Source: Folioceros fuciformis
Taxonomy: Eukaryota
Reading direction: 5' to 3'
Assembly: GCA_049999805.1 (NCBI GenBank)
Contig: JBNGIO010006104.1
Span: 62,771-109,393 of the forward strand
DNA length: 46,623 bases
Under the pieces are notes generated by a model that made no database searches, was not told the DNA's origin, and was given only the letters and a program-made list of their open reading frames with translations. Of this stretch, positions 3,945 through 44,973 are shown in pieces. The position numbers and the translations under genes were made by a program. The number at the start of each line of letters is the position of its first letter. Position 1 is the stretch's first letter.

Positions 3945-5908
3945 ATGTACGGACTCGAGGCGATGACGTTCAATGTAGAGGGCGGCTTCTTGGAAGCCAT
4001 CGTGCGAGGTTACAGATCCGGTCTGCTCACCGCTGTGGACTATAACAATCTGTGCCAGTGTGAGACTTTGGATGACATCAAATTGCATCTTTCCGCCACG
4101 GATTTCGGGCCCTATTTCCAAAACGGTTGGTCTCTTGCACTCCTGTCCTGCACAAATTTTGGTTTTCATGCTTTGCTCTGCCCGGGATGGGAGGCAGGTG
4201 GGATCACCGTGCAGATCTAACAACGTGAGAAGATGGGTCGTGTCTGCTGATCGTGGCGGCGTTGTTGTTTGCTCCAGAGCCCTCTCCTCTGCACACAACA
4301 ACTATAGTGGAGAAGTGCACTCAGAAACTGGTGGACGAGTACACGCACATGCTGGCTCACGCGACTCCGCCTCTTTCGAAGTTCTTGGAGTACACGACGT
4401 GAGTTGGTCTGTGCTTGGCATGTTTGGGAGATGTGGAACAAGTGCCTTCATTGGTTTGAGGGGAGCTGGAACAGCTGCTAAGGTGGTTCGGGCTCGTGCT
4501 CAGGTATGGCCATATGATCGACAATGTTGTGCTCATTGTCACGGGAACCCTGCATGAACGGGATGTGCGGGAGCTTCTGGAGAAGTGTCATCCGCTGGGT
4601 ATGTTTGACAGGTGAGAAGCGGGCGAGGCTGTTGGGGAAGATCAACTATTTCAGTCATTTTTTTTGTCTTGGGTGCCGAAGGTATTAAAGGGCTTGAGTG
4701 TCCCTGATGCAGTATTGGAACCCTGGCAGTTGCTCAAAACATGCGAGAACTGTACCGGTTGGTGCTTGTGGACACCCCGTTGGCTCCTTATTTTGAGGAC
4801 TGCATCACCTCGGAGGTGATTTGTTGTCTGTATTGTTGGTGTCGAAGGTGACGGGATAGTCTTGATCTTGATGTTGGTCCGTCTTGCAGGATCTGGATGA
4901 CATGAACATAGAGATCATGCGAAATACTTTGTACAAGGCGTATCTGGAGGACTTCTACAAGTTCTGCCAGGTGAGTTGGGGCAGCAGCTGGAGTAGTTGC
5001 AACTTGGCTTTTGTGAAGATCTCACGCTTGCATTTTCATCGTAGCAGAAGCTGGGTGGTGCTACAGCTGAAATAATGTGCGAGCTGCTAGAATTTGAAGC
5101 TGACCGAAGGGCTGTGAACATCACAATCAACAGGTTGGTCACTAGCATCACGTCATGTCTGCTCTATCTGACCATTGAGAAATATGAAGCCCTCATATGA
5201 ATGGAGTTGTGTTCAGCGTCCATCTGACCTGTGAATCACTGCAGCATTGGTACAGAGCTTACCCGTGATGACCGACGAAAACTGTATTCAAGTCTTGGCC
5301 TTTTGTAAGTGACTCGACTGGTGTGTACTGCAGTGCCGCTTTCTTTCTGAGAGCTTCTTTTTGTACCTGTAGGTTTTATGTTTGCTCTGCTTTCTGTACA
5401 GGTACCCGTATGGTCATGAGGACCTCGCTCTGTGTGAGGATTTTGATCAGGTGGGAAGCTTTTCTGGGTCCTACAGGAGTGCTGCCTGTTGTGTCCTCGA
5501 TCCTCTCGTATCTTTAAGTTTTTCCCCCTTGAGCAGGTTCGAGGTGCTATGGAGAAGTACCCTCCATACCACTCCATTTTTTCCAAGCTTTCGGATGGGG
5601 AGGGTCAGATGCTCGACAAGGCGTTCTGTGAAGAGGAAGTTAAAAGGCTCACCTTATCCTTTGAGCAGCAGGTATTTGTCCTCGTGCCTTTCGTCTTTAT
5701 CTCGTCGTGCAGAAGGGTTTGGGGGAAGACCCTGCAGGAGTCTGACGAAGTATGTTTGAACGTGAATTTATTGCAGTTTCACTACGCAGTATTTTTCGCC
5801 TACATGAGACTGCGAGAGCAGGAAACCCGCAATCTGATGTGGATCTCGGAGTGTGTAGCTCAAGACCAGAAGTCTCGCATTCACGACGGCATTGTGTTGA
5901 TCTTTTAA
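3945..5908 (+). CDS. VHA-d: V-type proton ATPase V0 subunit d; 10 exons
   Basis: Starts [28 protein letters not shown]. Contains [43 protein letters not shown] and the C-terminal [32 protein letters not shown]. Introns are canonical. Confidence 0.97.
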
Positions 5909-6565
5909 GCTTTATTCATCGGCATTGTGACGATGCGTTTGCACAGCAAGTTTTTTTTTTCTGGACTTTTCTGGGTTTGAAGCGATGAGAGGATTATAAG
6001 CCTCCTTCAAAGTTATGGAAGTCATTCATGTGCCGAGTGATTGTAAAGCTTGCTAATGAAGGAGCTGAGCGTGTTCTGTCACTATCCCAATGTCGTCCAA
6101 GCTTTCTTATTATCAGCAATAGACGTGGCAAGGGTCTGCTGCTAACAGCAATGTAAAGTGTTGCAATCTCCTAAGAAGATCATTTCCTCAGGAGGACGAT
6201 TTGACTACGGAATGGATCTCAAAACAAAGTTTCCCTGATCTTTGCTTCCATTAAACAGATTGGAACTTTTTACCAACTCGAACTTGTACCGAGGCTCTCT
6301 CTTCTGCCCATTTCACCTATCTTTGCCTGTGGACGCCCTCCCCAAAACTGTTCCTGTCCGTGCACTCTACTCTGCAGGGATTATGGTGGGGAACTTTCTT
6401 AAGCTTTGACTGTAGTTTGTGCGATAAATTAAAAAAAAAATAAAGGGTTGAGTCCCCAGTTCTGCAGTGATTTGCTTGAAGGATGTACATGAAAGAAACC
6501 ACAGCGGCTTGCGATGCAGCTTCAGATGCGGATCCACATCCAGTTCCAAGGCAATGGTGATGATG

Positions 6566-7338
6566 CTATTGTCTTTGGCCAGGCTTGTGGACGATGAAAG
6601 AGCAGCATTGGACCTGCCTCTTGTTGTCAAATCCCAGGACGCGGATGAAGCAGCCGGGGTAAGCCTGCTTGCAGTTGTCTATCTCCCTCAACACGGTTGC
6701 GGCATCAGTGCAGCCGAACATGGGCAGCTTCCACATGGTCCAGTACCGACCGTCGTAGTATCCAGGCTGGCCTTGCATCACGCCGATGGAACCGCTCTGC
6801 ATACAATTTCTTCAAACACCTCAGTCTCACGATCGGCGCACGAGAAGACTGTCCAGAACATGCGCATTGCATTTCAGCTCGAAACCTGGCCGGCTTACCG
6901 GGTCGAACTCGAGGCAGGGGATCCAGTTCCGGGCCAACATGTAATCTATCTCCCTCGCAATCTGGTCGGAGGTGAGCGGAGGAAGGTAAGAGAGGGTCTC
7001 GAACTTGGGGTTGCCGATGGGATTCCACACCTGCACAACGTCATGCACGGAAACCAGCCATTCGTGAGCTCAGCACATCCAACCGCACACTTGCTTCCGT
7101 ATTGGATTTCCAAGACGCCGATTCACGGCAGGCACTGCACCTGCATGCAGTTCACGCGGCTGCCGTTGCTGACGGTCCTGGAGCTGAGGCTGGCTGTTCT
7201 GACGGAGAAAGCAGCCCCGGACTTGAGGCCCAGGAAGGCCCGCACGGTGGAGGCCTCGGAGACGGAGCTGCTGGGGGAAGCAGCAAAGAATGCGGCCGGT
7301 GCCGCAACGGCGGATGTGATGGCGACCACGGAGGCCAT
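6566..7338 (-). CDS. rbcS: Rubisco small subunit copy 1 (exons 7338-7141, 7030-6899, 6796-6566)
   Basis: Ala/Ser-rich transit peptide ending [11 protein letters not shown], then [36 protein letters not shown] and [14 protein letters not shown]. Two phase-0 introns. Confidence 0.98.
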
Positions 7339-8110
7339 GGCTCAGCAAGCAGGAGGTGGAAGGCCTGTTGCAGATGAGGAGATCGAGAGGAAAGATCACT
7401 GAAGATGAACTGGATGGAGTGAACGTTGCTCGCATTGAGGCTCACTTAAGTAGTCTGGCCTGGGTATCCACAGCTGGAATTCGATCTGCTCCAGAAATGC
7501 ATATTCCGGAGGGCACTCCGGGAGTGTCGGGACTCACGATTGCACCGCCGGATCCACCGTGCCACTGGACATCACCATCCTCCGGAGCCGGAGGTGATCC
7601 ATATATTTTTGTCATCGCAACGATCACCGAGGAGCAAACGCTCTTCCCCAGTAGTGCTGGCCCATGCCGTCTGACAAGTGGTATCTTCAGTGATGCCTCG
7701 AGCATGGCCAGCGGATGTCAGTCCTGAATTCCAAGTCGCTGTTGTTGCTGAACCGGGATGATCAGCGGACGCGTGAACAAATGCAGCCCCTGTGGAATGG
7801 AATTTCTGGTTGGCCGCTGCGCAACTCATCCAAGCACTTGCTTCACCATTTAGCTAGCGCAGTCTAATGTAGGTCATCATCATATATTATTTGAAACAGT
7901 TCAAAATTTATAATAATAATAATGGTTTACTAGATGAAACACCTTTGAAATAGGTTAGGAGGTAATGTCAATCGCCAATCCATGTTCCCGAATCTGGATT
8001 GAAAACAGACGTGAACATAACAAGTATCCGGGACTCCCATAGTGTACATGTAGTGACTCGAAAGGCGAGCTTCGGAACATGTGCTGCAGCATCCGTGTTT
8101 CAATCTCGAG

Positions 8111-8937
8111 GTCAGTCTCTTCTGGACTTCAGGACGTCTCGAATTCTTGCCCTGATGACAAATTTGGCTGAGCTCGTGGAGTTCAGGCATGGTTCCTGGA
8201 ACCTGTCATTTCTTGCCTAGGGGGAATCTATCCATTGTGAAAGGGTTTTCAGTAGGCAGGGTTTCTAGGACCTGGCAACCTTGTTTTGATATTGTCAGAT
8301 TTAGATTACAAACAGATATGTTGCTTTCACCTCCATTTTGACAAGATCTTAAACTTTTGCTTGTGCACCAGCATTTCAAGAACATCTTGAGGGGAAGCTA
8401 AGCTATCTCGATCTTGAGTGTTAGGCTGCTCTTATTGGATTGCCAAGTATGTACATAGGTCTGGGAGCTCAAGCCACTTAAGTATATGCATATACTAGCT
8501 CAAGGATTGGACCTACCTCCTTACGGGAAGCTAAGCTATCTTGATCTTGAGTGTCAAGCTGCTCTTATTGGATTGCCAAGTATAAACACAGGTCTGGGAG
8601 CTCAAGCCACTTAAGTATATGCATATACTAGCTCAAGGATTGGACCTACCTCCTTAGGGGAAGCTAAGCTATCTTGATCTTGAGTGTCAAGTTGCTCTTA
8701 TTGGATTGCCAAGTATAAACACAGGTACGGGAGCTCAAGCCACTTAAGTATGTGCAAATACTAGCTCAAGGATTGGACCTACCTCCTTAGAAGAACTGTG
8801 GCCTATTGTTGCGTTCATCAATCAATTATTGTGTTCATCATCAACTTACTCATCTAGTCTCCTCCATCTCTATCCATTCTTGTGCAAATTTAGTTTAACC
8901 TCATTTACTAACAAAGAGTCTTTGGCTCCTTTCTTAG
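8111..8937 (+). other. Probable 5'-UTR intron of kinase-like gene K1 (counterparts 12952-13049, 16109-16208, 19941-20439)
   Basis: All four units have a pyrimidine-tract AG ending exactly 21 nt before the ATG. All have an aatctc.ag|gt donor in a conserved upstream block (gc in unit 3). Confidence 0.55.
8392..8789. repeat. 133-bp tandem repeat, 3 copies
   Basis: gggaagctaagctatct...ggacctacctcctta recurs at 8392, 8525 and 8658 with few mismatches. Confidence 0.95.
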
Positions 8938-8958
8938 CCCAACCTTAGCAATCAAGTG

Positions 8959-10668
8959 ATGGACATACAGATCTCTTGTGGTGGGAACCTATATGTGATA
9001 CGGAAATACATTGGCTGTGGAACATGGGCATCAGTATATGAAAGTAAGTGATATGCTTTGTTTCTACAGCAAGTGATGCATACAAAGATAAGTTATCCTC
9101 TCATTTTCGTTTTAAAGAGCAAATGTTTCATTCCCTAATTAGTATGTATTCCACATTACTAATCAACCTCTCGAAATAAATAAGTTGTACTATGAAAATA
9201 ATAATTTTTTTTATCTCTAATGAATATTACTAATTTTTTAACGTTAGATAACCTAACTATTTATAGGCAAATACATGAAATGTGATTACATTTTTTTAAA
9301 ATATTTGTAATAAAAAATATATAATTAATTTAAACTATATGATAAATAAATTGAATTGGCTGCTTACACTTGTTTTGAAGTAACATTCTTTTGGAGTTCA
9401 TGTGAACGTGATTGTAAGATACTTATTTGGTTAATCATGTGTTTTGCAGGTGTAGACTTACAGAATGGCAACACTGTGGCAATCAAATTGCAGGGTAATA
9501 AGGACAAGAATAATCAACTTGATACAGAACGATTAGCATATGAAATCTTGAAAGATGGTATTGGTATTCCAAAGTTCTATGGGTTTGAATGTAGTGTTGA
9601 TTGCGGGATGTTAGGCACACATGATGTGCTCGTAATCGATTACTTGAAGCGTTGGAGATTATCAGGGCTCCCTCTCAAAACAATCTGTCTAATAGCTTTG
9701 CAGATGGTATTACAACAATCGTATCATCATCAAGTATGTTATTCTTGAGAAATTTTCACATTAAATGTAACCTTACGACAAACATTTTTCTTGTAGTAGA
9801 TTGAGATTGTGGCATATGTGCACTCCAAGAATGTGATTCATGGTGATTTGAAACTTGAACATTTCCTTGTGGACCTCAACTTCAACCAGGTTGGTGTAGC
9901 TCTTCACTGAAATTTTGATCTCATGTTATAACAACATAGTTTCTCAACGTCTTTGTTTTCTATCTCAGTTGTACCTAATAGATTACAATGTTTCAACAAT
10001 CAACGATCCTCAAAGAAGGTATGTTAAACATAGTGACTTGTATCGGGGACTTGTGTGTGTTTTTAAAGTGATTATAATCTAGCATTGATGGTAGGTGGGT
10101 TGAGCTGCATAATTTGAACTTAGTGTTGCAAAGCCTCTGTACACCCTCGAGAGTTCCTCCTCAAACTTTGTGTGAAACTTCAAAAGATGAAGAGGAGCAA
10201 CGTGAACTTGAGATTTTGGTGTGTGCTTTCATGTTTTTCTGAAGTAACCTTCCTTCAGGCACTTTCATATTTGTCTTACTAAGTGTAGTGATATTGAAGC
10301 AAGTTTTCTTTCAACTGCATCTCATTTCCTTTCCATGATATGTGTGGCTTTCAGATCTTGAAACATATCATGGATAGATTGTGTGAGCTTGATACTTATA
10401 ACAATGGAATTGAGATTTATAAGATGATGAGACGAGCTTTTCTAAATGTTGTGGAGAGTCAAGGTAATTTATTTTGTATATTATGCCTGGGTATGAGATG
10501 AGCTGGTTATTGTATTTTGACATTTTTGTTGACCTAGTAGTGCTATAAATGAGTAGTTGAAGGGATAAAATTCACTTAATGTTGGGAACTTTGTACTCAA
10601 TGCACTTAGGTTATGATACCATCCTTGACTTGAAAGATCATGAAGATAAGGACAAGTATGAAGATTAA
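8959..10668 (+). CDS. Truncated casein kinase 1-like protein K1, ~257 aa (exons 8959-9043, 9450-9706, 9800-9889, 9969-10018, 10095-10218, 10355-10463, 10610-10668)
   Basis: IGCGTWASVYE, VAIK, LKDGIGIPK, LPLKTICLIALQM|IEIVAYVHSKNVIHGDLK, NQ|LYLIDYN and SQ|GYDTILD parallel the CK1 segments LQGGTGIP, LSLKTVLMLADQM, HSKSFLHRDIK, NQVYIIDFG and REGFQFDYVFD. The exon-5 donor is uncertain. Confidence 0.8.
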
Positions 10669-10954
10669 CAAGCATATCAATGTATATGAATTCATTGAAA
10701 CTGTTCTATTATTTGTTAGATATTAAATATTACAAATAGAACGTCATATAATCTCAGATCTAATGTGAGGAGTGCTTTAAAGACTTCTTATTGAGCATAA
10801 ATAAACATTCGCAATATACTTTAATCTAAATGCTAGGCCATGCTTTGATTCAACAGGTTGGACCATTCAACCAACTCAAAATTCGTAAGGAGTTTTTCAT
10901 ATGGCCCACTCGACCTCTTTGGCTATGGCCCAAATGAGCTCTCCAGTCCTGCAC

Positions 10955-11040
10955 GGGGTTGCTTGAAGGATGTACATATATGAAAGAACAGAGCGGGTTG
11001 CTTGAAGGATGTACATATATGAAAGACCAGAGCGGGTTGC
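10955..11040. repeat. 39-bp tandem duplication in the rbcS copy 2 3' UTR
   Basis: gggttgcttgaaggatgtacatatatgaaaga.cagagc occurs twice. The copy 1 UTR has a single counterpart. Confidence 0.85.
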
Positions 11041-11099
11041 AAAGCGGATCCACATCCAAATCCACACACATATCCAGATCCGAGGCAATGGCGATGTAT

Positions 11100-11877
11100 C
11101 TATTGTCCTTGGCCAGGCTTGTGGACGATGAAAGAGCAGCATTGGACCTGCCTCTTGTTGTCAAATCCCAGGACGCGGATGAAGCAGCCGGGGTAAGCCT
11201 GCTTGCAGTTGTCTATCTCCCTCAACACGGTTGCGGCATCAGTGCAGCCGAACATGGGCAGCTTCCACATGGTCCAGTACCGACCGTCGTAGTATCCAGG
11301 CTGGCCTTGCATCACGCCGATGGAACCGCTCTGCAGACAATTTCCACCAACTCCTCAGTCTCACGATCGGCGCACTAGGAGACTGTCCAAAACCTGCGCC
11401 TTCCTTTGCAGCGCGAAACCTGGATAGCGTACCGGGTCGAACTCGAGGCAGGGGATCCAGTTCCTGGCCAACATGTAATCTATTTCCCTCGCAATCTGGT
11501 CGGAGGTGAGCGGAGGAAGGTAGGAGAGGGTCTCGAACTTGCGGTTGCCGATGGGATTCCACACCTGCGCAACGTCATACATTGAAACCATCCCTCCGTG
11601 AGCTCAGCAATTGGAACCTCACCGTGAGCTTGCGTGTGCGTTGGATTTCTAAGACGACGATAAACAGCAGGCATTGCACCTGCATGCAATTCACACGGCT
11701 GCCGTTGCTGACGGTCCTGGAGCTGAGGCTGGCTGTGCTGACGGAGGAAGCAGCCCCGGACTTGAGGCCGACGACGGCCCGCATGGTGGAGGCCTCCGAG
11801 ACGGTGCGGCTGGGGGAACCAGCAACGAATGCGGCCGGCGCCGCAACAGCGGATGTGATGGCGACCACGGAAGCCAT
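11100..11877 (-). CDS. rbcS: Rubisco small subunit copy 2 (exons 11877-11680, 11564-11433, 11330-11100)
   Basis: Same structure as copy 1. The mature protein differs at two residues (GNRKF vs GNPKF; GQGQ vs GQRQ). Confidence 0.98.
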
Positions 11878-13070
11878 GGCTCTGCTAGCAGACGAAGAGA
11901 TCGAGAGGGAAGATCACTGAAGGTGAACTGGATGGTGTGAACGTGTCTCGCATTGAGGCTCGCTTAAGTAGTCTGGTCTGGGATTCCATACCCGGAATTC
12001 AACCTGCTCCACAGACGCATATTCCGGATGGCACTCCGGGAGTGGCGGAGTTCACGGAGTTCAGCCTGCCACTGCGCGTCACCATCCCTCGGAGCCGGAG
12101 ATGATACATGTATTTTTGCCATGGCAACGAGCTCAGATGAGCTCATGCAAGCGGTATCTTCCGTGATACCTAGGCCATGCTCCAGGCTGAGGATGTGTTG
12201 AGCTCCATTACAATGCATACAAGAGGAAGAAGACAAAATTTTCTTGAGGGAGGAAGACGGGATGGCCCATCGATATTCCCAAAGGATTGGGCTAAATTGG
12301 AGCAAACAAGCTTCGTAGTAGAGGGCCCTTACAGGGCGGCAAGCCACTCTCACCAAGAAACCAACTGGCATCAACTTGCTTCCGTGAAGATGCCCGGAGG
12401 ACTGAATCACAGGAACCGCACCAAGTCGTTGCGCGGCGATCCCAATGCATGGCCCGACAATGCGAGTCCAGAATCCTAAGCTCCTGTTGTTGCTGAACCG
12501 GGAGAAACAACTGATGCTTGCAAACAAATGCAGCTCCTACGAAATTTCTGGATCAGCGCTCCACCACTCACTCATCCAGGCCCTCGCTTCACCATTAGGG
12601 CAGTGGAAAGTAGCTCAATCATATACCCTTCCAAATTACTTTAAAACATTCTGACCTTATGCTTTACTAGAGGAAACATCTTTCAGAACGTTAGAGTTCC
12701 CTTTGATAGGAATATGAAACAGCTTTCAAAGAGCATGCCAATCACCAATCGCCCATGGATGTTCCAGAATCTCATGGATGTTCCAGAATCTCAATTGAAA
12801 GGAGACAGAGCATACCAAAATCTCAATTGAAAAGAGACAGGAGTGTGAGTATAAGTGCTTGGGGACTCATATAGAGTACAGGTTGAACCAGGACACTCTT
12901 GGCTCTTCTCATCCATCTGCCCATCTGCAGCATATGTTTTTGAATCTCCAGGTGAACAATATCATTGAATTGAACAAAATTGGTATAGAGTCATGTGCAG
13001 ATTTAGGTTTACCTTATTACTAATCGAGAGTCATGGGTTCTATCCTTAGGTCAACCAAAACAATTAAGCT

Positions 13071-14650
13071 ATGGTGATCGAGATCTTGTGCGGTAATAGG
13101 CAATACCTGATAGGGAACCGTATGGGTTCTGGATCATTCACATTAGTACATGAAGGTAATGAATATCATCCCCTTGTTTATGTGGGAAGAAAGGTTGAGA
13201 TGTGTGTCTAAAGCTTTGTACATGTTTATGAAGTCACAAGTGAGAACCTCAATAAACCAAAACCGATTGCATTTGCTATCATGATTAGTTGACTCAACTA
13301 ATCCTGTTCATTTTGCATGAACATTCACTCGAAGTTGATGCTAACACTGTTCTCCATTGCTTATGTCCTTCACCATTTCTTGCAGGTTACGACATAAAAG
13401 ATGGGAATGAGGTGGTAATCAAAATACAACATCATTCAAATGAGTACAGCCCATTCGATAGGGAACGAGAGACATATGAAATCTTACAAGACGGTATTGG
13501 TATTCCGAAGCTCCTTGGGTGGCAATCTAATGTTCAGTGCGACGACTGGGGCATGTTTGATGTGCTCATACTTGAGTACCTAAAGCGGTGGAGACCAATT
13601 GGGCTCTCTCTCAAAACAATTTGTCTGGTAGCCTTGCAAATGGTATGATCATTGTATCTTCATTCTCAGTATCATCCTTAGGATTTCACCTTAAATGTAA
13701 CCTAGCAACAAGTATTTTGCTTGTTACAGATCGACATTGTGCAGCACATGCACTCCAAAAATGTGAGTCACCGTAGTCTGAGAGTTCAAAACTTTCTAAT
13801 GAATCCTGACTTCAACCAGGTTGGTGCAGCTCCTTTCTGCAATCTTGGTTTCAATTCATAGCAACATATTTTCACAATGTTTCTCTATGTTTCATTCCAG
13901 CTATACTTAGTAGATTTTAACTATTCAACGATCAAAGATGTTCAAGGAAGGTATGTTAAACCAATTGAAGTATGAGGAACTTGACTTGAATGCGTCCTTC
14001 TCAAATTTATGATGAACTAAGTTTATGGCAGGTATACTGATCTCGAAGATTTAAGCTTAGTGCTACAAAGCTTATGTAAACCTTTAAACAACCCACCACT
14101 AAGCTCAAGCGAAAGTTCAGACAAGTCAACACAAAGCCCAAGTGAAACTTTAGAACATGAGGATGAGACTCCAAATGACCAAGAGGTTCGTAGTATGTGT
14201 TTTAGAGTTGTACTAGACTAAACTAACTGTCTTTTAAGCACTTGCTTAATATCTTTCTTGCTAGCCACAATCATATTGGAACAAACCTTCTTTCACATGC
14301 TTCTCATTTCCTTTGTATGATGTGTGTGGTTTCAGATCTTACGAAATATGGCCAAAGAATTGCGTGAACTTACTCCTTCTCTGAAGTTGGCTAAGATTTA
14401 CAGCTTGTTTAGAGAGATATTTGCACACGTTGTGGAAACGAAAGGTAATTTATTTTAAGCATTAACCCTTGGATTTGTGATGAACTAGTTGTTTTGTTTT
14501 GACATTTTAGTTAGTCTACTACTAATGCAAATGAATAGCTCAATTGATGAAGTTTGCTTAATGTTGATCATTTTATGCTTAATGCAAGTAGGTTATAATA
14601 ACGTTCTCAACTTGAAAAGTCATGAAGATTATGAAGATTATGAAGATTAA
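13071..14650 (+). CDS. Truncated CK1-like pseudokinase K2, ~267 aa (exons 13071-13155, 13386-13642, 13730-13819, 13901-13950, 14032-14185, 14336-14444, 14592-14650)
   Basis: MGSGSFTLVHEG, VVIK, LQDGIGIPK, LSLKTICLVALQM, HRSLRVQN (no catalytic Asp), LYLVDFN and RYTDLEDLSLVL. The frame is open through 7 GT-AG exons. Confidence 0.85.
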
Positions 14651-14799
14651 CTTAAAATATTGCAAGTTATGAGTGATTTACTGAAAAGAGAAACAGAAGT
14701 TTGTATATGAATATGAAAAATGTATTAAATGTTTATTTTGTAATTTAATCATAATTGAACCTTGACGCTCCACAGCTCGGCAGTAGTATGATTAGCACA

Positions 14800-15325
14800 A
14801 GCACCTCAGTCTCACAATCGGCGCACCAACAGTGGATGGGCCAGAACATTCGTGCTCATTCCATTCGTGCTCGAATCTGGCTAGCTTACCGGGTCGAATT
14901 CGAGGCAGGGGATCCAGCTCCTGACCAACATGGAAGCTATCGCTCTCGCAATCTCGTCGGGGGTGAGCCGAGGAAGGTAAGAGAGAGTCTGGAACTTGGG
15001 GTTGCCGATGGGATTCCACGGCAGGTCATGCATGGAAACCAGCCATCCCTGAGTTCAGCACGTCGAACCGCACTCGATCTTGCGCATTGGATTTCCAAGA
15101 CGCCGATCCACGGCAGGGACTGTACCTGCATGCAGCTCACACGGCTGCCGCTGCTCACGGTCCTGGAGCCAACGAGACTGGCTGTGCTGACGGAGGAAGC
15201 AGCCCCGAACTTGAGGCCCATGAGGGCCGGCACGATGGCGGCCTCTGAGACGGTGCAGAGGGGGAAGCGGCAACGAATGCGGGCGCTGCCGCAACGGAGG
15301 ACGTGATGGCGACTACGGGAGCCCT
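14800..15325 (-). pseudogene. rbcS: rbcS copy 3 pseudogene
   Basis: The start ATG has become AGG (15325-15323) and exon 1 has indels. The intron-1 acceptor is deleted. Exon 2 has drifted ([43 protein letters not shown]). Exon 3 is absent and the proximal promoter is deleted. Confidence 0.92.
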
Positions 15326-16229
15326 GGCGCAGTAAGCAGATGAAGAGATCGAGAGGAAAGATTACTGAAAGTATCGTCAATGATGCCTGTGCCGTGCTGG
15401 AGGCTGAGGATGTGTTACGCTCGATTAGTATGCATGCGAGAGGAAGATGGGAGAGGCCACCGATGTTTCCAAGGATTGGGCTACTTTGGAGGAAATAAGC
15501 TTCGTAGTAGAGGGCCCTTACAAGGCAGCAAGCCAGGATCACCATGGAAACAAATGGCTCCAACTTGGTCCCGTGAAGATGCAGGGAGGGCTGGATCGCA
15601 GAACGCCACACCAAGTCGTTGCACGGCGATGCCAATGCATGGCCAGACTATGTGAGTCCTGAATCCCTGTTGGCTGTTGTTGCTGAATCGGGAGGAACAG
15701 CTGATGCTTGCGAAGAAATGCAGCTTCTGAGGAATTTCACGTTCAGAGCTCCACCGCTCAACCGGGAACTTCAGAGCTACACCATTTAGGGCTGTGGAAG
15801 GTACCTCATCATGTATCATTTGAAATAGTTTAAAATATTACGATAATAATGGTTCGATAGAAAAGACATCTTTTGAAATATTCTAACGGTACACTTGTAT
15901 AGGAATATGAAACATATCACTAGGTCAAGAGGGAATGCCAATTGTTGTTAGCCGATGTTAGGAGGGAATGCCAATTGTTAGTTGATGTTTATAAATCTCA
16001 ATGAAGAATGGTTGGAAGTTGTTGGGGACTCCCATAATGTATGCTTAGTGTGGCTGGAAAGACTCTCTTCCGACCCATATGCTGCAGCGTCTACTTTTCA
16101 ATCTCTAGGCGAACAATATCATTGAATGTGAACAATGTGTGTATCTACTCCTATGCAGATTTAGTTTTACCTCTGTGAGTAATTGAGAGTATTGGGTTCC
16201 TTCCTTAGCTCAACCAAAACAATTAAGCT

Positions 16230-18496
16230 ATGGCTGTAGAGATATGGTGTGATAAGAAGGCATATTTGATGGGGAACCCCTTTGGTTCTGGAATATGGGC
16301 AACATTCCATGAAGGTAAGTTACATGCTCAGTTTCTACATCAAGCAATGCATAAAAAGTTGAGTCATCCATTCTACTTGTAATATGCACATGGTTTATTC
16401 CTTCGTTACTATGTATTACACATTGCTAAACAACAACCCTAAACTCTACGCTATGGAATCCATACTTCTGCACAGTTTACGAATATAGCTCCTTTGTTTA
16501 TGTGGAAAGAAAGTATGGGATATGAGTCTACAAGCTATTGATTAGTTAGTTCAGTGAGCTACAAGCTATTGACTAGTTGAACGAGCGAGTTGAGCTGCAA
16601 GTTGTTCATTAGTTGCATGAGCTGCAAGTTGTTCATTAGTTGCATGAGTTGCAAGTTGTTCATTAGTTGCATGAGCTGCAAGCTNNNNNNNNNNTTGATT
16701 AGTTGCATGAGCTACAAGCTGTTGATTAGTTGCATGAGCTACAAGCTGTTGATTAGATGCATGAGCTACAAGATGTTGATTAGGCGAATGAGTTGAACTG
16801 CAAGTTGTTGATTAGGAGAATGAATTGAACTGCAGGCTGTTGATTAGGCAAATGAGTTAAGTTGCAAGCTACAAGCTATTGATTAGTTGAGTGAGTGAGT
16901 TGCAAGCTGTTGATTAGTTGGGTGGTTAAGTTGCAAGCTATTGATTAGGTGAATGAGTTCAACTACAAGTTGATGAGTTGCATGAGCTGCAAGCTGTTGA
17001 TTAGTTGCATGAGCTACAAGCTGTGGATGAGTTGCATGAGCTGCAAGCTATTGATTAATTGAATGAGCTGAAACTTTCCTGCAGGTTTTGACTTAGAAGA
17101 AGCTGACACGGTGACAATCAAATTACATTCTACCTTAACCAATTATAACTTATTTGATATAGAAGTAGAGGCCTACCAAACCCTACAACAAGGTATCGGT
17201 ATTCCAAAGCTCCATGGGTTTGACTCTAATGTTGATTGTGGAGAGCATGGCACATTTGATATGCTCATAATTGACGACCTAAAGCGTTGGAAAGCATATA
17301 ATCTCTCTCTCAAAACAATTTGTCTGATAGCCTTGCAAATGGTATGATCATTATACCTTCATTATGAACATCATTCTAAGCATTGCACATAAAATATAAC
17401 CTTACAACAAGTGTGTCTCTTATTGCAGATTGACATTGTGCAATACATGCACTCCAAAAATGTGTATCACGGATTTTTGGTTCTTCAAAATTTTCTGGTG
17501 GATCCCAGCTTTAGCCAGGTTGGTGTAGCTCTTTTTCCTGCTTTTTCTTTTTTTTAAATATATATATATATAACAACATGAAATCTTTACGACGTTTCTA
17601 ATAATGTTTTTGTTTCAGTTGTATATAATACAATTTATTTTTTCAACAATGGAAGACACTGAAGCAAGGTATGTTAAACCAAGTGAAGGTAAGGCCTTGA
17701 CTTAAATATGTCCTCATAACATGATTTTATGGCAGGTATATTGATCTCGAAGATTTAAACTTAGCACTACAAAGGTTGTGTTTATCCTCAAAGCATGAAC
17801 AAAGCCCAAGCGGAACTTCAGAACATGAAGATGAGAAACAAGATGAACAACATGCTTCAGTAGATGAAGATGAGAAACAAGATGAACAGCAAGCGTCAGA
17901 AGATGAAGATGAGAAACAACATGAACAGCAAGCTTCACAAGACGAAGATGAGAAACAACATGAACAGCAAGCTTCACAAGACGAAGATGAGAAACAACAT
18001 GAACAACAAGCTTTGGAGCATGAAGATGAGAAACAACATGAGCAGCAGGTTTGTAGTATGGATTTTAGTGTAAGCTAATTCTCTTTCAAGCACTTTGGCA
18101 TCCTTCTTATTACCCACAATCAAATCTTCCTTCCCTTTCACCTACTTCTCACTTCCTTCCTATGATATCTTTTTGGTTTTCAGATCTTACTAGATATTGA
18201 TAACAAATTGCGTGAACTTTATACTCGTGTGGAGTCAGAAGATATTTATACGATGTTGAGGCAGACTTTTTCAGATGTTATAGAGAGCCAAGGTAATTTA
18301 TTCTAAGCAATTTTTCTTCTTGGGTATTTGATGAATTAGTTGTTTTAATTTGGCATTGTAGTTAACTTGGTAGTGTTGTAAATGAATTGTTAAATTGATA
18401 AAATTTATTTAACATTAACTATTTCATTATTACTCAATCCATGTAGGTTATGATAATGTCCTAGACTTGAAAGATCATGAAGATCGTGATAATTAA
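16230..18496 (+). CDS. Truncated CK1-like pseudokinase K3 with acidic repeat, ~317 aa (exons 16230-16314, 17085-17341, 17429-17518, 17619-17668, 17736-18048, 18184-18292, 18447-18496)
   Basis: FGSGIWATFHEG, VTIK, LQQGIGIPK, LSLKTICLIALQM, HGFLVLQN, LYIIQFI (in place of DFG) and RYIDLEDLNL. The frame is open. An N gap lies inside intron 1. Confidence 0.83.
16523..17069. repeat. 27-bp minisatellite (with longer variants) in K3 intron 1, spanning an assembly gap
   Basis: Consensus tgagctacaagctgttgattagttgca is repeated. An N run starts at 16685. Confidence 0.95.
17818..18048 (+). repeat. Coding 39-bp repeat, about 6 copies (13-aa SQDEDEKQHEQQA)
   Basis: In-frame repeats inside K3 exon 5. Confidence 0.95.
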
Positions 18497-18723
18497 CTTC
18501 AAATATTGCAACTCAAAAAAATGAAAAACATATGGATACATACAAGTTATTTAAAATGCTCTTATTAATTTAAATATTTTATTATACATAAAATATTAAA
18601 TTCTATGTATTAAGGAATAGAGTGTGATGTACTCTTATATTATTGCCTAACATTTTACATGAGTCGAAGCCCAATACTTTATATAGGTTGGTCGAGCAAG
18701 CTCAATTAGCACCTTAATCCTTC

Positions 18724-18840
18724 AGTGGGTTTAGGGTTTAGGGTTTAGCCTACTTTAGTCTACATGTTTGGCCTTCTTAAGTAGTGGGTTTAGGGTTTAG
18801 GGTTTAGCCTACTTTAGTCTACATGTTCGGCCTTGTGAAG
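18724..18840. repeat. 59-bp duplication, each copy carrying three plant telomere repeats (GGGTTTA)
   Basis: agtgggtttagggtttagggtttagcctactttagtctacatgtt occurs at 18724 and 18783. Confidence 0.92.
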
Positions 18841-19374
18841 TAAGGTATGCTAGTGCACATTGGGTTCATGAGACTTTGATATTCAGACACAGAAGAAACC
18901 CATTTATGGAAAAAACTCAAGGAAAAACCATCTCACAAAGAGACTTAGGTGGCTTCTGCCTAAACTTTCTTTTAGGAAAACCCATTGACCATGGCATCCA
19001 TGTTGCATATGGTGTGCAACAAAGGGCAAAGAAGACTCCTTAATTTCTCTTTTTACAGCAGCCACATCGAGTTCGTTGATACACCAGACGAACCAACTCT
19101 CAGCAACTACACCAAATGAACTTGTCCATCCAAAAACACATAATCCTATCATAGACATCTAGTTGCACCTCCTTCCTCACACACCCACCATAGTTTCGCA
19201 ATATGTATGCTTAAAGTGTCTTTCTTTAGTCATTTACGATTAAGGATTGTGAAAGGGAATTAGAAGTATATGCTCATATGCTCAAGTGTAGGTAGACCCA
19301 ATGGAGCTCAGCTCTTGCTTTTGAAGGTCTCATGTTGAGGGAAGCCAAGGAGCAAGCCTTAATGCGCTCAATGT

Positions 19375-19940
19375 GACCAAGAAAGCAAATCAACTTACCT
19401 TGATGAAGTTGCCATGAGGGTTGAATCATAGAAACCACATCAAAATTGGTGTGCAGTGATGCCAATGTGTGGCCAAACTATGGTAGTCCTGAATCCCAAG
19501 TGGTTGCTATCCCTAAATAGGGTGAGAGAAACAAGTTGATCAACTTGCTCCTCTCGGCTAGTTTGCTTACATCATGCATGATGTAGTATGCAAACAAATA
19601 TAGCTCTTGTGCAATTTTTGGATAGGTTCATACACGCACTCACTTCACCATTTAGGGTAGTGGAAAGTAGCTCATTATACATATCATTTGAAAATAGTTT
19701 AATATCTTATAATTATTATAATTTACTCAATGAGAAATATTTAAGAATAATATAGCGATACACTTGGATAAGAATATGAATAGGTAATGAGAGAATTGTA
19801 ATCACCAATCAACGTTCTTGAATTTAAATTGAAAAGAGATGGGAACATATCTTATAGGGGACTCCCATAGTGTATGCCTAGTGTGACACGAAAGAGATAC
19901 TTCTGATCACTTGCCGCAACATCTTCCTTTCAATCTCCAG
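19375..19940. other. Fourth, decayed copy of the rbcS-kinase intergenic spacer, with no rbcS attached
   Basis: Aligns by eye to 12352-12951 and 15541-16108 (gtcctgaatccc, caaacaaat, cttcaccatttagg, ggggactcccata). Confidence 0.8.
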
Positions 19941-20460
19941 GTCAATCTCTCTTGGACTTTAGAAATCGTTAGGGCTGCATTCATAGTAGTTGAGCTTGTG
20001 AACTGAATTCAAGCAGCCGTAGGCATTTCTCCATTCCTTTGCCTTAGAGAAATCCATGTAGTATGGCAGGGTTATTAGTATGCAAGGCTTAGCTAAGCCC
20101 TAAAAGGCAGAGCCAAGTTCTGAAAGCTTTTCATAACCTGGCCATCTCGTTTTGATATCAGTAGGGATTAAGATTGCATACAGATGAATCTATTGTTCAC
20201 TTCCATTCTAACCATTTTGTTCTCCTCCATTTTGTTCTCATCTCAAGGTTTCACTCCTACACCAGCATTTCAAGAATATCTCCAAGTAAGCACATGTTAC
20301 CTCTGTTTTGAGTGTCAAGCTGCTCTAATCCCATTGCCTAAGTTTATGCATAGGGTTTAGGAGGTGCTCCAATATCCGCATCCATTCAAATTTCATCCAT
20401 ATCCATTACAGAGAAGACAAGATTGGGTTCCTTTCTCAGCTCAACTAAACCAATTTAGCT

Positions 20461-22053
20461 ATGGCTATTGAGATCTCCTGCAATGGGAAGCAATACTTGA
20501 TAAGGAGCCCTATTGGTGCTGGATCTATAGCAGATGTATATGAAGGTAAGTGACATGCTGAATTTCTACACCAAGCTATGCATATAGACAAGTTCAGCTC
20601 AGTAGCTCATTCCTTATGTATTACACTTCGCTGAAGAACAACAAATACATTGAACAATGGAAACAATACTTGTGCAAGTCCCTCTGTTTGTGTGTCTACA
20701 AAGTAGATTGATGCACCTCTATGTACAGGTCTTAAGTAATGCTCATAGTCTTCTTGAATGAACACTCATTGTAATCTGATGCTAATGTGATTATCCATTA
20801 CTAACTTCTTTTACTATTTTTCCGCAGGTCTAGACGTAGAAACTGGCAATCAGGTGGCAATCAAAGCGCATCCTCGACGAAGGGGGGATAGAGATCTGTT
20901 TCACACCGAACAATTAGCATATCAAATCCTAAAAGATGGTACTGGTATTCCAAAGCTTTATGGGTTTCAAACTAGCTTTATGTTTGCAGACTTAGGCAAA
21001 CATGACATCCTTGTAATCGAATACTTAAAGCAATGGAGATCATCAGCGCTCTCTCTCAAAACAATATGTCTATTAGCATTACAAATGGTATGATTATCAT
21101 ATCATTATGGCTAATATTATTCTCCGTTTTCCATATCAAATGTAACATGACACAAGTATGTCTCATCTCGCAGATCGACATCGTGCAATACATGCACTCC
21201 AAAAAAGTGACTCACTGTGATCTGAAACTTGACCATTTTCTCATGGATATCAACTTCAGCCAGGTTGGTGTGAAGTCTTCCTGAAATCCTCATCTCCTAC
21301 CATAACAACATATTTTCTCTCTTTTTATGTCTTTTTTGTTTTATTTTTTCAGCTACGTGTAATAGATTTCAATTGTTCAAGAATCGACAATCTCTCACAA
21401 AAGTATGTTAAACCTCTTGATGTATATCCGACTTTTGTCTTTCCCAAATCCCTCATAAACTAATACTTGTAGCTAGCAGGTGGATTGATTTTCGTTATTT
21501 GAACTTATCCCTACAAAAATTATGTGAACACTTCGAACATCCACCAGAAAGCTTATTTGTACCTTCAAGACATGAAGAGAATAAACAGCATGACCTGAAG
21601 GTTTGCAGTCTGTGTTTTAGTGTCCTGCTTACTAATGTTCATTTAAGCAATTTCATAATCTGAGTAATCTTCCTTCAAATTCATCTGATTCATTTGATTC
21701 CCTATCTATGATCTCTGTGGTGTTCAGATCTTACAAAATGTTGTTCTTGATTTGCGAGAATATAGTTTAGAAGAGTCAGATGAACTTTACTCGATATTGA
21801 GAGAGATTTTTTTGAAAGTTATCAAGAGTGAAGGTACTTTGTTTCAAGCATGATTCTTGGGTGTGTGATGCACTAAGTTTTGATGTGTGTTTGCATTAGC
21901 TTAGTAGTTAACATAGTGCCTTAGTTTGTGTTACACATGAGTAGTTGAATTGATGAAATTCACTCAATGTTGTATCTGTTGTTGATCATCTTCTACTTGA
22001 TACATGTAGGTTATGACACCATCCTTGACTTGAAAGATGATGAAACAAATTGA
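20461..22053 (+). CDS. Truncated CK1-like protein K4, ~251 aa (exons 20461-20545, 20828-21087, 21174-21263, 21353-21402, 21480-21600, 21728-21833, 22010-22053)
   Basis: IGAGSIADVYEG, VAIK, LKDGTGIPK, LSLKTICLLALQM, HCDLKLDH, LRVIDFN and SE|GYDTILDLKD. The frame is open and the introns are canonical. Confidence 0.85.
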
Positions 22054-22699
22054 TGGGAAAGAGATTATGGAGGCAAGGCCCCCATCCATTACTTCAATCT
22101 TGATCATATAGTCAAAAGAGGAAGAAGCTTGAAAAAAATTAGGGATGTCTTGAAACCCAGAATGTCTTTTGCATGCTCAATGCTACTTAGCTTAGCTTAG
22201 CTCAGAAAAAGTGGTTATCTGTCACCAAGCTCGATTTGCTGTCAATGGAAAGCAGCCAGCCACATAATTCACTCCATGCTGCTCATGCCAACTCTTACTC
22301 ACACAGCTGGTTTCAAGCAGTCAAGTAAAAGTAATTGTAATTGTGGTAAAAGAAAAGGCTGAATAGGCAGGTATTATGGTCGGAAATTGGCTTAGACCCG
22401 ATGGGGTTACAACAGGTTAGTCGGGCACCGAATGCCACCGACAGCCGAGGGCGTACAGGATACAAAGAGACGGACGGCGTACAGTATGTACCGTAGTACG
22501 TATCGCACAGACCACAGTCGTCAAACGATTCCGATGCCGCATCTTCCTCGACAGTGCACGCAAGAGAGGCAATGCCGGGACGAGTTGGACTGTCTCTGCT
22601 TAGCCTTCCTCCCCCTTGTCGACCCCCCTCCTCCATGCGTCCTCCCTGGCCTGGCCTGCACTGCCCGCCCGCCCGCGGCCTGCGCCTTCTCGCTCTCTT

Positions 22700-27852: not shown

Positions 27853-30047
27853 TCAGGTTGTTGCCGGCTGCTGCTCCAGAAATCGGTGCAGGTCCGACAG
27901 GTCGAGATCGCGAGACACAGCCGGCGGCGAGAGCAGAAAGGAATGCAGGAGGGTCTGCGCCATTTCGAGGCACGCGCCAGCCCGTGAACCCTGCAGGTTG
28001 AGCGCCAGGTTAGGGTTGTGGATGCTTTGCCGAAGATGCACCCAGCCCGTGTTCTCCACCTGTGCGCGGTACATGTGCGCGTCCAACCCGGGCGGCGGTG
28101 TATCCGCGGGCAAAGGTGAGTCTGGCTCCCAGTCCACCAGGCAACCGTCGCTAACCCAACAGTCTCCACATTCCCCCAGCTTCCAATCCCCGCCGTTCTC
28201 CTGGCTCACCACTAGGAATCTCCGGAAGGCTTCCACCAGCTCAGCGCCACGCCGCTTAACATGCTGAGGAGCCGACAGGATGTGGATTCGCAGCTCCACG
28301 CTCTCCCCGGCCGGCGGCTCCTCCAGATCCGCGATCACCTGTCCGAGCGCCGCCTGGGCATCCCGCAGCCGCAGCCGCACCAGGTGGATGATGATCTTCA
28401 CTGCGCTGTAGGCGCCGTCGTCCAGGAAGTAATTCTCCGCCATGGCGCCGTGGCCGGAGGTCTCCATCATGAGCGGCGCCGGGACGCCGCTCGCGTTCAG
28501 CTGCACTCCCTTGTTGATAACGTTGCGGTAGCCGACACGGAAGAGGCAGTGCGTACCCCCGCGCCGCTCGATGAAGGCGGAGAGGCCGTCGCTGGTGCGC
28601 GCGTCCGTCACTATCGTGGCTCTCTCCTTCTCTTCTCCGCGCTCCTCTAGCACTATGGCCGCTAGCAGGGCGATGAGGCGGTCGCCGTTGATGACCCGCC
28701 CCTCCTGATCCACCACGCCGCTGCGATCCACGTCCGTGTCGAACACCACTCCCAGATCCGCCTTGCTCCGCAGCACCGCCTCCACCGTGGCCGCCATCGC
28801 CTTCTTGTCCTCCGGATTCGGAGCGTGGTTGGGGAACAGCCCGTCCGGATCCAGGTGCAAGCTCCCGCTCACGTCCGCTCCCAACGGCGCCAGCACGTCG
28901 CGCGCGAAGAAGCCGCCTGACCCATTCCCCGCGTTCACCACCAGCTTCAGCCCCTGCAGCGGCCTGTCGCGAAGCTCTGGATCCGGATGCGCCACTCCCT
29001 TCTTGATCACTTCCCGCAGATGCGCTGCGTACGCCGCCATCACCGGCACACCCGGCAGCCCGGGCGCGAGGAAATGAGGAGACGCATTCTTGGCAGCGTC
29101 ACGACCCGCCCCGAGGCAGATGGCCTCGATGTCGGCCACGTCCAACCCGCCCCGGGGTGTGAAGAATTTCAGTCCATTCCGCGCGAAGGGGAGATGCGAG
29201 GCCGTGAGCTGATCACACACAACTCGTGCGATTTAATGAAGTGACTCGTGCTGAAGAAAGAACTTCAAAAACAGTCAATGAAATGAGACTTTGCCTCCCA
29301 ACAAGGCAAGGCATTTGTAGGATGGTCCCGCGGCAAACAAAGGACTCGCACACAGATCATGGCGTTGCAACAAGGTCATGCTCTAGGTATGTACATTGAT
29401 TGAAATGGAAGGCGGAGGTGAGCGGATACCATGATGGAGGCGTCGAAGAGGAAGCCGGGGAGCACGGTGCTCATGAAGCAGGCAGGGGTAGTGGCGAGGC
29501 CCATGTCGAAGACGACGCACCCGGAGGATTGCAGGCCGGCAGCCATGGCAGCCAGGAGAGACGGCCCGCTGAGACGCGGATCGCGACCGACCGAGACGCG
29601 CACTTGAGACGTCTCCCCGTCCCGATTCGATGCCACCCAGCGGCCGAAGGCGGCCCCGATGTGGAACACGGCAGCCGGGGTGAGCGTGACGCTGCGCCCG
29701 GGCTCCCCCTCCATGGCCACGCCGCGGATGTCCGACCCGTTCTGCAGCCGGAGGATCTCCGCGTCTACCTGCTCTTCCTCCTCCTGCAGCGCAGGGGATC
29801 TTGCCGCCGCGGAGGCAGCTCGCGGCCATCTGCTTCTTCCTCCCCCTCCTGTTCGTGCCGGCGAGGCCGCACACGACATGGAAACGGAAACAGGCGCAGA
29901 CACAGAAACAGGAGCCGGCATCGGCATCGGAATCCGCATCTGCAGCCACGGCCATGGCGTTGTCCGAGCAGGATGGGAGCAGTGAGGAAGAGGCAACGAA
30001 GGCGAGGGAGACGCTACGGCCGCGGCATTTCCGACGCCAACCGCCAT
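27853..30047 (-). CDS. Alpha-D-phosphohexomutase (phosphoglucomutase/phosphomannomutase-like) with probable plastid transit peptide; exons 30047-29430, 29208-27853
   Basis: LQNGSDIRGVA, GRDPRLSG, catalytic TASH, NGLKFFT, metal-binding FDTDVDR and ETSGH. One phase-0 intron. Confidence 0.93.
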
Positions 30048-30471
30048 CTCCTCCTCCTCGCTTGTTTCCTTCCTTGCTGGCTTTACGACCTTGACGTGCG
30101 GAGCGGAAGCGGAGCTTGAGAGGCGGGTCTGAAGGAGTGTTCTTTATATCTCTACTTCGGGACAGGACGGGGCAAGGCGGGGGAGGCGGGACCACTGCGG
30201 GGCAGACAGTCAAGCAGATATTTGTTTCACGACAGTGTGCCGACTCTCGGGACGTCTCGCCTCGGCTCCTCTTCTCGTCTCGTCGCCTGAGGAGGAGGAA
30301 GGAGGCCGTGTGTTTGGTGAATGAGAGACACTGTGAATATGTATAGGCTACAGGCTCAAGCTCATGGGACGGTGTGTTGGAGGGGGAAGGATGAGGAGGG
30401 TGTTGCTGTTGTGTGAGAGTGCAGCGTCGACTGCCGAGCAGCCGGAGCCGGCCACCAACCAATAAGATAGG

Positions 30472-33400: not shown

Positions 33401-33586
33401 TGGCGGGCACACAGGTACACGGCTGCAGCTGCATACGCAGCTGGCACTGAGTCGGACGTGGGTTCCTTGGAGGTCGGCAAGTATGCAGACTTCGTGGTTC
33501 TATCCAGGAGCCCATTGGAAAGATCCGAGGATCCCATGTCCCTTGTGGCTACATATGTGGGAGGTAGTGCTGTCTTCAGGGCCTGA
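30472..33586 (+). CDS. LAF3: Amidohydrolase-3 family protein, LONG AFTER FAR-RED 3-like, multi-exon
   Basis: N-terminal hydrophobic anchor, then PGFIDSHVH, RVDGHMGLAN, VKAFADGSLGSSSALF, AVHAIGD, IEHCQH, ALGSDWTVAP and GSLEVGKYADFVVL. Confidence 0.88.
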
Positions 33587-44788: not shown

Positions 44789-44973
44789 ATGCAAAAGTGT
44801 TCTTTGAAGCGGTTAGTAGAATGCTATGCAAAAGTGTTCTTTGAAGAGGTTAGTAGAATGCTATACAAAAGTGTTCTTTGAAGATGTTAGTAGAATGCTA
44901 TGCAAAAGCGTTCTTTGAAGAGGTTAGTAGAAAGCTTTGCAAAAGCATTCTTTGAAGAGGTTAGTAGAATGCT
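44789..44973. repeat. 37-bp tandem repeat, 5 copies
   Basis: atgcaaaagtgttctttgaagaggttagtagaatgct starts at 44789, 44826, 44863, 44900 and 44937. Confidence 0.95.

Follow-up and report, generated by a model that had tools for sequence, protein, structure and literature searches.

The stretch of DNA analysed here, 46,623 nucleotides from Folioceros fuciformis (assembly GCA_049999805.1, contig JBNGIO010006104.1, positions 62,771 to 109,393; "the window" in what follows), carries a tandem array in which rbcS, the gene for the small subunit of Rubisco, is paired with a gene of CK1 type. The array consists of four units of about 3.7-4.5 kb each and spans 6.4-22.1 kb of the window. Each unit has a CK1-like gene on the + strand (K1-K4 in units 1-4) behind a homologous spacer, and rbcS stands head-to-head with it on the - strand; units 1 and 2 have an intact copy (R1 and R2), unit 3 has a truncated pseudogene (R3) and unit 4 has none (Table 1). 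Repeat finding gave six direct-repeat families (D2, D5, D7, D15, D18 and D20) with four copies each at a spacing of 3.6-4.2 kb, and, for rbcS, families with two or three copies at intervals of 4534-4539 and 3446-3457 nt. The units were also recovered by self-BLASTN of the window (E 1e-8 to 0), with 66-73% identity between the kinase-like parts in all six unit pairings; for the rbcS parts, 6472-7635 matches 10998-12142 at 85% and 6813-7403 matches 14798-15369 at 80%. A search of the window by tblastn with the four kinase-like proteins detected no further copy. An initial sequence-only reading had described four units of about 4 kb, each built as rbcS, spacer and divergent CK1-like gene, with spacers homologous throughout and with survival of the kinase-like gene in all four units and of rbcS in two; repeat finding, self-BLASTN, the spacer alignment and the gene models agree with that description.

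Table 1. Features of the array and its flanks (positions in the window).
Feature	Position	Strand	Remarks
rbcS remnant, isolated, frameshifted	1312-1447 (136 nt)	-	end of exon 3 and 3' untranslated region (3'UTR); outside the array
V-ATPase subunit d gene	about 3.9-5.9 kb		PF01992; one flank of the array
R1, rbcS copy 1, intact	6566-7338	-	exons 7338-7141, 7030-6899, 6796-6566; 186 codons
rbcS proximal upstream region of R1 (5'UTR and promoter)	7339-7635	-	conserved between R1 and R2 only
Spacer block, unit 1	7702-8132	+	putative K1 promoter and non-coding first exon; putative donor 8111, putative 5'UTR intron 8111-8937
133-nt tandem repeat, about 3.2 copies	8365-8790		family D8; 86-95% by self-BLASTN; inside the putative K1 5'UTR intron
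K1	8959-10668	+	exons 8959-9043, 9450-9706, 9800-9889, 9969-10018, 10095-10218, 10355-10463, 10610-10668
R2, rbcS copy 2, intact	11100-11877	-	exons 11877-11680, 11564-11433, 11330-11100; 186 codons
Spacer block, unit 2	12447-12951	+	putative donor 12952, putative 5'UTR intron 12952-13049
K2	13071-14650	+	exons 13071-13155, 13386-13642, 13730-13819, 13901-13950, 14032-14185, 14336-14444, 14592-14650
R3, rbcS copy 3, pseudogene	14796-15330	-	PF00101 on exon 2 remnant, E 1.1e-6
Spacer block, unit 3	15637-16109	+	putative GC donor 16109, putative intron 16109-16208
K3	16230-18496	+	exons 16230-16314, 17085-17341, 17429-17518, 17619-17668, 17736-18048, 18184-18292, 18447-18496
Site in unit 4 where rbcS is expected	18497-19368		870 nt of unrelated sequence
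Spacer block, unit 4	19404-19962	+	putative donor 19941, putative intron 19941-20439
K4	20461-22053	+	exons 20461-20545, 20828-21087, 21174-21263, 21353-21402, 21480-21600, 21728-21833, 22010-22053
Malectin-like receptor kinase gene	from about 22.9 kb		PF12819; other flank of the array

CK1 ancestry and lost parts of the kinase-like proteins

A seven-exon model of K2 was built by eye from the sequence and transferred to K1, K3 and K4 via the alignment, giving open reading frames of 257, 267, 317 and 251 codons for K1, K2, K3 and K4. When a profile made from the four exon 2 translations was searched against the PDB, 36 of the 39 rows returned had CK1 names (delta, epsilon, alpha, gamma, HRR25, YCK2, Gilgamesh and plant CK1-like among them), two had generic kinase names and one, at E 0.84, was a ribosomal protein; the best match extends over the whole exon with E 4.3e-9. 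When a profile was made from the full spliced proteins, its positions 9-154, which run from the N-terminus to the DFG region, were matched by CK1 proteins, and seven of the top 25 matches had a second matching segment at about positions 220-245, the C-terminal alpha-H/I motif. On this profile evidence K1-K4 derive from CK1, and a long branch (1.98) separates them from its canonical members.

Alignment with six CK1 domains indicates which parts have been kept and which have gone. The CK1 N-lobe, helix alpha-E and the C-terminal alpha-H/I motif are retained, and both the VAIK lysine (VAIK, VVIK, VTIK, VAIK) and the alpha-C glutamate are invariant. The catalytic loop reads HGD-LK-LEH in K1, HRS-LR-VQN in K2, HGF-LV-LQN in K3 and HCD-LK-LDH in K4, so that its Asp, Lys and Asn occur together in none of the four proteins: K1 and K4 have His in place of Asn, and K2 and K3 have neither Asp nor Lys. 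Instead of DFG, K1 has DYN, K2 and K4 have DFN, and K3 has QFI, and the distance from the DFG Asp to the start of alpha-F is 11 residues as against 42 in plant-type CK1, about 31 residues being missing from the activation segment. Additionally, the Gly loop has lost its third glycine, seven residues are deleted at the hinge, and in place of the alpha-G region stands a variable insert, acidic and rich in Ser/Thr, which an in-frame 39-nt repeat enlarges in K3. The proteins have the kinase fold at their very start, with no N-terminal extension and no transit peptide apparent. The CK1 ancestry given in the sequence-only reading holds, but proteins that have lost canonical HRD and DFG residues and the activation segment are not usual kinases.

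Two repeats within K3 can be added here. The 39-nt tandem repeat of its exon 5 has about six copies (17777-18088), coding for acidic 13-residue repeats, and a 27-nt tandem repeat (16522-17100), broken by an assembly gap of 10 N, fills most of its intron 1.

Search for relatives

No close relative of K1-K4 was found in two very large protein libraries, where only generic CK1 was matched. The protein collection covers liverwort, moss, lycophyte, charophyte and angiosperm sequences (Marchantia, Physcomitrium, Selaginella, Closterium, Klebsormidium, conifers and many angiosperms). Word-index searches with K1 exon 2 (for longer proteins) and with a four-exon alignment (for proteins of similar length) returned no match in either case. 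Against a library of 1.84 billion representatives, the exon 2 profile matched 114 proteins at E <=0.001, two of them at <=1e-10 and none at <=1e-30; among the 14 examined, 11 are Pkinase-domain proteins matched at the position typical of CK1. The top three library matches, which are Ig, fn3 or HYR repeat proteins, were discarded as spurious, and P0067, considered as a relative in two halves, proved to contain two full-length CK1 domains in tandem, which keep HRD, DFG/DFS and an activation segment. A query of the ESM Atlas with K1 exon 2 produced two sorts of cluster, unnamed short eukaryotic ones at 0.94-0.96 and ones bearing kinases at 0.88-0.90, which serve as leads only. These searches suggest that the family is either limited to a lineage outside the searched collection or too fast-evolving to be recognised. 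Likewise, neither an rbcS/CK1 unit nor a plant CK1-derived pseudokinase was found in the full-text literature, a body of text that leaves subscription journals largely outside its scope.

The kinase-like genes are intact and under relaxed purifying selection

GT or AG stands at homologous positions in 47 of the 48 splice sites of K1-K4, and at the sole non-canonical one, the donor of K1 exon 5, a GT is available 6 nt downstream, in frame. Exon lengths differ among the four genes by multiples of 3 only, and intron lengths vary freely. In all six gene pairs, identity is highest at codon position 2, lower at position 1 and lowest at position 3. Pairwise Nei-Gojobori estimates (NG86), which are near saturation at these distances, gave a synonymous divergence (dS) of 0.62-0.81 and a ratio of non-synonymous to synonymous divergence (omega) of 0.50-0.62. 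The pooled omega of 0.54 (bootstrap 0.43-0.69) is significantly below 1, and regional values (0.30-0.67) never exceed 1, the lowest being found over helix alpha-E and the catalytic loop.

It could be argued that K1-K4 are dead relics, that is, exon-bearing CK1 debris whose frames are open by accident. Their exons are 66-70% identical, only slightly above the 59-65% of their introns, catalytic motifs have been lost, no relatives were found and the composition is AT-rich. However, in a neutral simulation in which each coding sequence was mutated with intron base composition, the probability of an open frame at 0.1 hits per site per lineage was at most 0.034 per gene and 2e-7 for all four, and it drops further at higher rates. 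With every exon indel in frame, the splice sites kept and omega significantly below 1, the relic explanation is effectively excluded. Because of their open frames, their splice sites, the in-frame exon differences and an omega of 0.54, we conclude that K1-K4 are real genes under relaxed purifying selection.

rbcS copies and history of the array

R1 and R2 each have three exons, a complete reading frame with an N-terminal transit-peptide-like extension, and matches to PF00101 (exon 3 E 3.8e-26 and exon 2 E 1.3e-10 in R1; E 4.3e-26 in R2); their identity to the plant and algal small subunits among the matches listed, which number at least 120, is 62-84%. R3 departs from this in having a changed ATG, frameshifts and a deleted exon 2 acceptor, with exon 3 and the proximal promoter gone; by self-BLASTN, unit 3 is without about 230 nt that match the proximal upstream region of R2. 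That region belongs to a conserved block of about 300 nt upstream of rbcS, common to R1 and R2 only and 82.5% identical over 268 columns. At the position in unit 4 where rbcS is expected, self-BLASTN found neither a trace of rbcS nor a match elsewhere in the window, and the three reading frames tried gave no Pfam family. The isolated remnant outside the array is 81-84% identical to R1 and R2 (self-BLASTN and the list of reading frames). It lies just downstream of a succinyl-CoA ligase alpha gene, which together with the V-ATPase subunit d gene stands between the remnant and the array.

The same topology, ((1,4),(2,3)), was obtained in unrooted trees for the kinase gene regions (support 77) and for the spacers (support 100). 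Both trees have long terminal branches and a short inner branch, and it follows that the units arose in quick succession long ago. Tandem arrays of rbcS are common, and gene conversion is well known in them. Here the exons of R1 and R2 are 99.6% (exon 3), 97.0% (exon 2) and 91.9% (exon 1) identical, and their introns 76-82%, as compared with 59-65% for the kinase introns of the same units; in rbcS intron 1, R1 shares 84.6% identity with R3 and only 76.4% with R2. Since this mosaic similarity conflicts with the unit tree, it indicates gene conversion among the rbcS copies. Base composition differs as well inside each unit, the GC content of third codon positions (GC3) being 0.80-0.81 in rbcS and 0.32-0.41 in the kinase-like genes, a contrast that may reflect expression level or GC-biased gene conversion.

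The history of the array bears on a proposal of the sequence-only reading, namely that selection for kinase diversification may have dragged rbcS along. Selection for pseudokinase variants, such as decoys or binding modules, would then have driven the duplications, with rbcS as a passenger that is now being lost. Such a scenario would account for four intact kinase-like genes beside two intact rbcS genes, for paralogues only 45-51% identical in protein, for catalytic residues that differ by copy (HGD, HRS, HGF, HCD; DYN, DFN, QFI, DFN), for the hypervariability of the acidic insert with its repeat expansion in K3, and for an omega that is high for a kinase fold. The neutral simulation shows that each kinase-like gene has been kept by selection. 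In these four sequences from one genome, however, omega reaches 1 in no region, which speaks against the scenario and gives no sign of positive selection. The copies diverged long ago in a nearly star-like manner and none is recent, unlike those of an arms-race family with birth and death of genes, and, as rbcS arrays are common on their own, rbcS dosage would be an equally good driver. We consider it unlikely that the kinase-like genes drove the expansion, although which of the two genes was the driver cannot be told from one window.

The spacer and the question of shared regulation

Homology among the spacer blocks joins 7702-7952 to 12447-12683 and 15637-15880, 7826-8132 to 19628-19962, and 15574-15667 to 19404-19497 (self-BLASTN, E 1e-8 to 1e-26), and an alignment of the four spacers agrees. 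The common block adjoins the kinase-like gene: in units 2 and 3 it lies about 120-620 nt upstream of the ATG, ending about 120 nt short of it, and in units 1 and 4 an insertion, part of which is the 133-nt tandem repeat, places it farther away. A single copy of the 133-nt repeat unit is found in unit 4 at 20220-20354, inside the putative 5'UTR intron of K4. Neither the deletion of the proximal rbcS promoter in unit 3 nor the absence of rbcS from unit 4 is accompanied by loss of the spacer. Pairwise identity over 535 shared columns is 57-71%, no higher than in the kinase introns and exons, and only three short islands are nearly invariant, the last of which ends in a donor-like site (GT in three units, GC in one). 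A polypyrimidine-AG acceptor stands 21 nt before the ATG of all four kinase-like genes, and an in-frame TAA just upstream of the ATG in K2-K4. Because it adjoins the kinase ATG, persists without a working rbcS and ends in a donor-like site that an acceptor follows before the ATG, the spacer would belong to the kinase side, and it is most simply interpreted as the promoter and a non-coding first exon of the kinase-like gene itself, with a 5'UTR intron behind them. An upstream reading frame from a conserved ATG in the spacer was rejected as a candidate, as its length of 50, 64, 1 and 19 codons in the four units is not conserved. Rfam and tRNA scans of the whole window gave no match and no gene, so the spacer is not a known RNA gene.

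The alternative is that the spacer is a shared, bidirectional and light-responsive control region, as the sequence-only reading also put forward. The pair would then be duplicated and kept for co-expression, for example if a CK1-like protein in the cytosol acted on the precursor of the small subunit or on Rubisco-related signalling. The two genes are head-to-head in three of the four units, a homologous intergenic block is present in all four, and in unit 1 no more than about 70 nt separate the block upstream of rbcS (to 7635) from the spacer (from 7702). Yet the spacer and an intact kinase-like gene persist without the rbcS promoter in unit 3 and without rbcS in unit 4, at an identity no better than that of the introns and exons of the unit. 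The four intergenic regions contain no G-box and no pair of G-box and I-box, their only GATAAG I-box being in unit 4, and G-box, I-box, GT-1, evening-element and CCA1 motifs form no pattern in them common to the rbcS-bearing units. Moreover, the GC3 contrast suggests very different expression or conversion regimes for the two genes, and K1-K4, beginning as they do with the kinase fold, have no transit peptide. Shared light regulation is left without support by the persistence of the block, its intron-like identity and the missing G-box, and we regard functional coupling of the two genes as quite improbable. The link of the kinase-like genes with rbcS is probably one of adjacency only.

Other features of the window

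Further genes lie at 27853-30143 (-), 30800-33586 (+) and 37700-41200 (-). They comprise a phosphoglucomutase/phosphomannomutase-like gene (PF02879, PF02880) and, judged by eye from translations of the reading frames only, an amidohydrolase-like and a ClpX-like gene. Near the window end, a tandem array with a period of 27 nt (43150-44410 and 44894-46623), which has a second 10-N gap at 44259-44268, adjoins a Ty1/copia-type polymerase (PF25597, PF07727).

Discussion

This locus is probably best explained by an old segmental duplication of two adjacent genes whose linkage is positional rather than functional. The ancestral block would have held two divergent neighbours, rbcS and a lineage-specific gene derived from CK1, and tandem duplication would have carried it to four units that separated at about the same time, long ago (dS 0.6-0.8 between the kinase-like genes). 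The rbcS parts were later homogenised by gene conversion, one copy decaying to a pseudogene and one being deleted, while every kinase-like paralogue diverged and yet stayed open and spliceable under relaxed purifying selection. On this account the rbcS linkage would be a matter of neighbours duplicated together.

CK1 ancestry, the motif losses and the selection on the genes together lead us to assign K1-K4 to the pseudokinases, defined by a kinase fold without at least one of the VAIK Lys, the HRD Asp and the DFG Asp/Gly, a definition they appear to fit; neither their catalytic loop nor their DFG/activation segment is that of an active CK1. As catalytic residues and the activation segment are missing, the proteins (about 250-320 residues) most likely act without phosphotransfer, by binding, scaffolding or substrate mimicry, in the cytosol or nucleus.

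Array structure, intactness of the genes, CK1 ancestry, motif losses, selection regime and rbcS conversion are shown here, and the lack of catalysis, the exon in the 5'UTR and the lack of coupling to rbcS are inferred from the sequence. Several considerations weigh against this interpretation. K1 and K4 keep HxD and the catalytic-loop Lys, and may have atypical nucleotide binding or residual activity. The Pfam Pkinase model (PF00069), run on single exons only, scored 16-20 bits on exon 3 of K1, K2 and K4, below its cut-off of 31.7, with no match on K3 exon 3, and exon 2 matched nothing in Pfam. Pairwise omega is blind to positive selection confined to few sites. As to regulation, the ATG-to-ATG distances of 1620 and 1193 nt in the two intact units, in which each side has its own conserved block, are compatible, together with the head-to-head orientation, with shared control, and the missing G-box and I-box motifs say little, since they are of angiosperm type and the cis-elements of non-seed plants may differ. 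Finally, a 10-N assembly gap at 16685-16694, inside intron 1 of K3, makes the length of that intron uncertain, and the copy number of a tandem array read from an assembly may be inexact.

A stronger version of the coupling idea would have K1-K4 as lineage-restricted, miniaturised CK1-derived pseudokinases that are tied to rbcS by a divergent control region and a selected pairing, with a cytosolic role in small-subunit supply or in light/carbon signalling, for instance as a CK1 pseudo-substrate or sponge. This we think very doubtful.

Neither tandem rbcS arrays nor pseudokinases are new in themselves; the unusual feature here is a plant offshoot of CK1 that, despite large internal deletions, has been kept as four intact paralogues. 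If expressed, K1-K4 would be a compact natural example of a kinase fold cut down and yet kept by selection, and candidate modulators of CK1 signalling in a non-seed plant lineage. The locus also offers a contrast within itself, as rbcS is homogenised and GC3-rich whereas the neighbouring kinase-like gene of each unit diverges freely.

Comparison with known systems

K1-K4 resemble the CK1 family (delta, epsilon and alpha, and the plant CK1-like structure PDB 3sv0) in the N-lobe, helix alpha-E and the GIGIP and LSLKT blocks, and their C-terminal motif matches the alpha-H/I region; CK1 chains are their only significant PDB matches. They differ from CK1 in their degenerate HRD and DFG, in the hinge and activation-segment deletions and in the acidic insert that takes the place of alpha-G. 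A partial likeness can be drawn to VRK3, described as a CK1-group animal pseudokinase without canonical catalytic residues, thought to be mainly a scaffold or modulator (PMC13030254). K1-K4 share with VRK3 a CK1-group fold that has lost its canonical catalytic residues; unlike VRK3, with its full-length domain, they have large internal deletions and form a four-copy plant tandem family, and the relationship does not extend beyond the kinase fold.

On the rbcS side, the array is like those of seed plants in its near-identical coding exons, diverged introns and flanks, mosaic conversion and decayed copies. In contrast to seed-plant arrays, each unit here adds an unrelated, head-to-head gene that has stayed outside the homogenisation, as the dS of 0.6-0.8 between the kinase-like genes attests.

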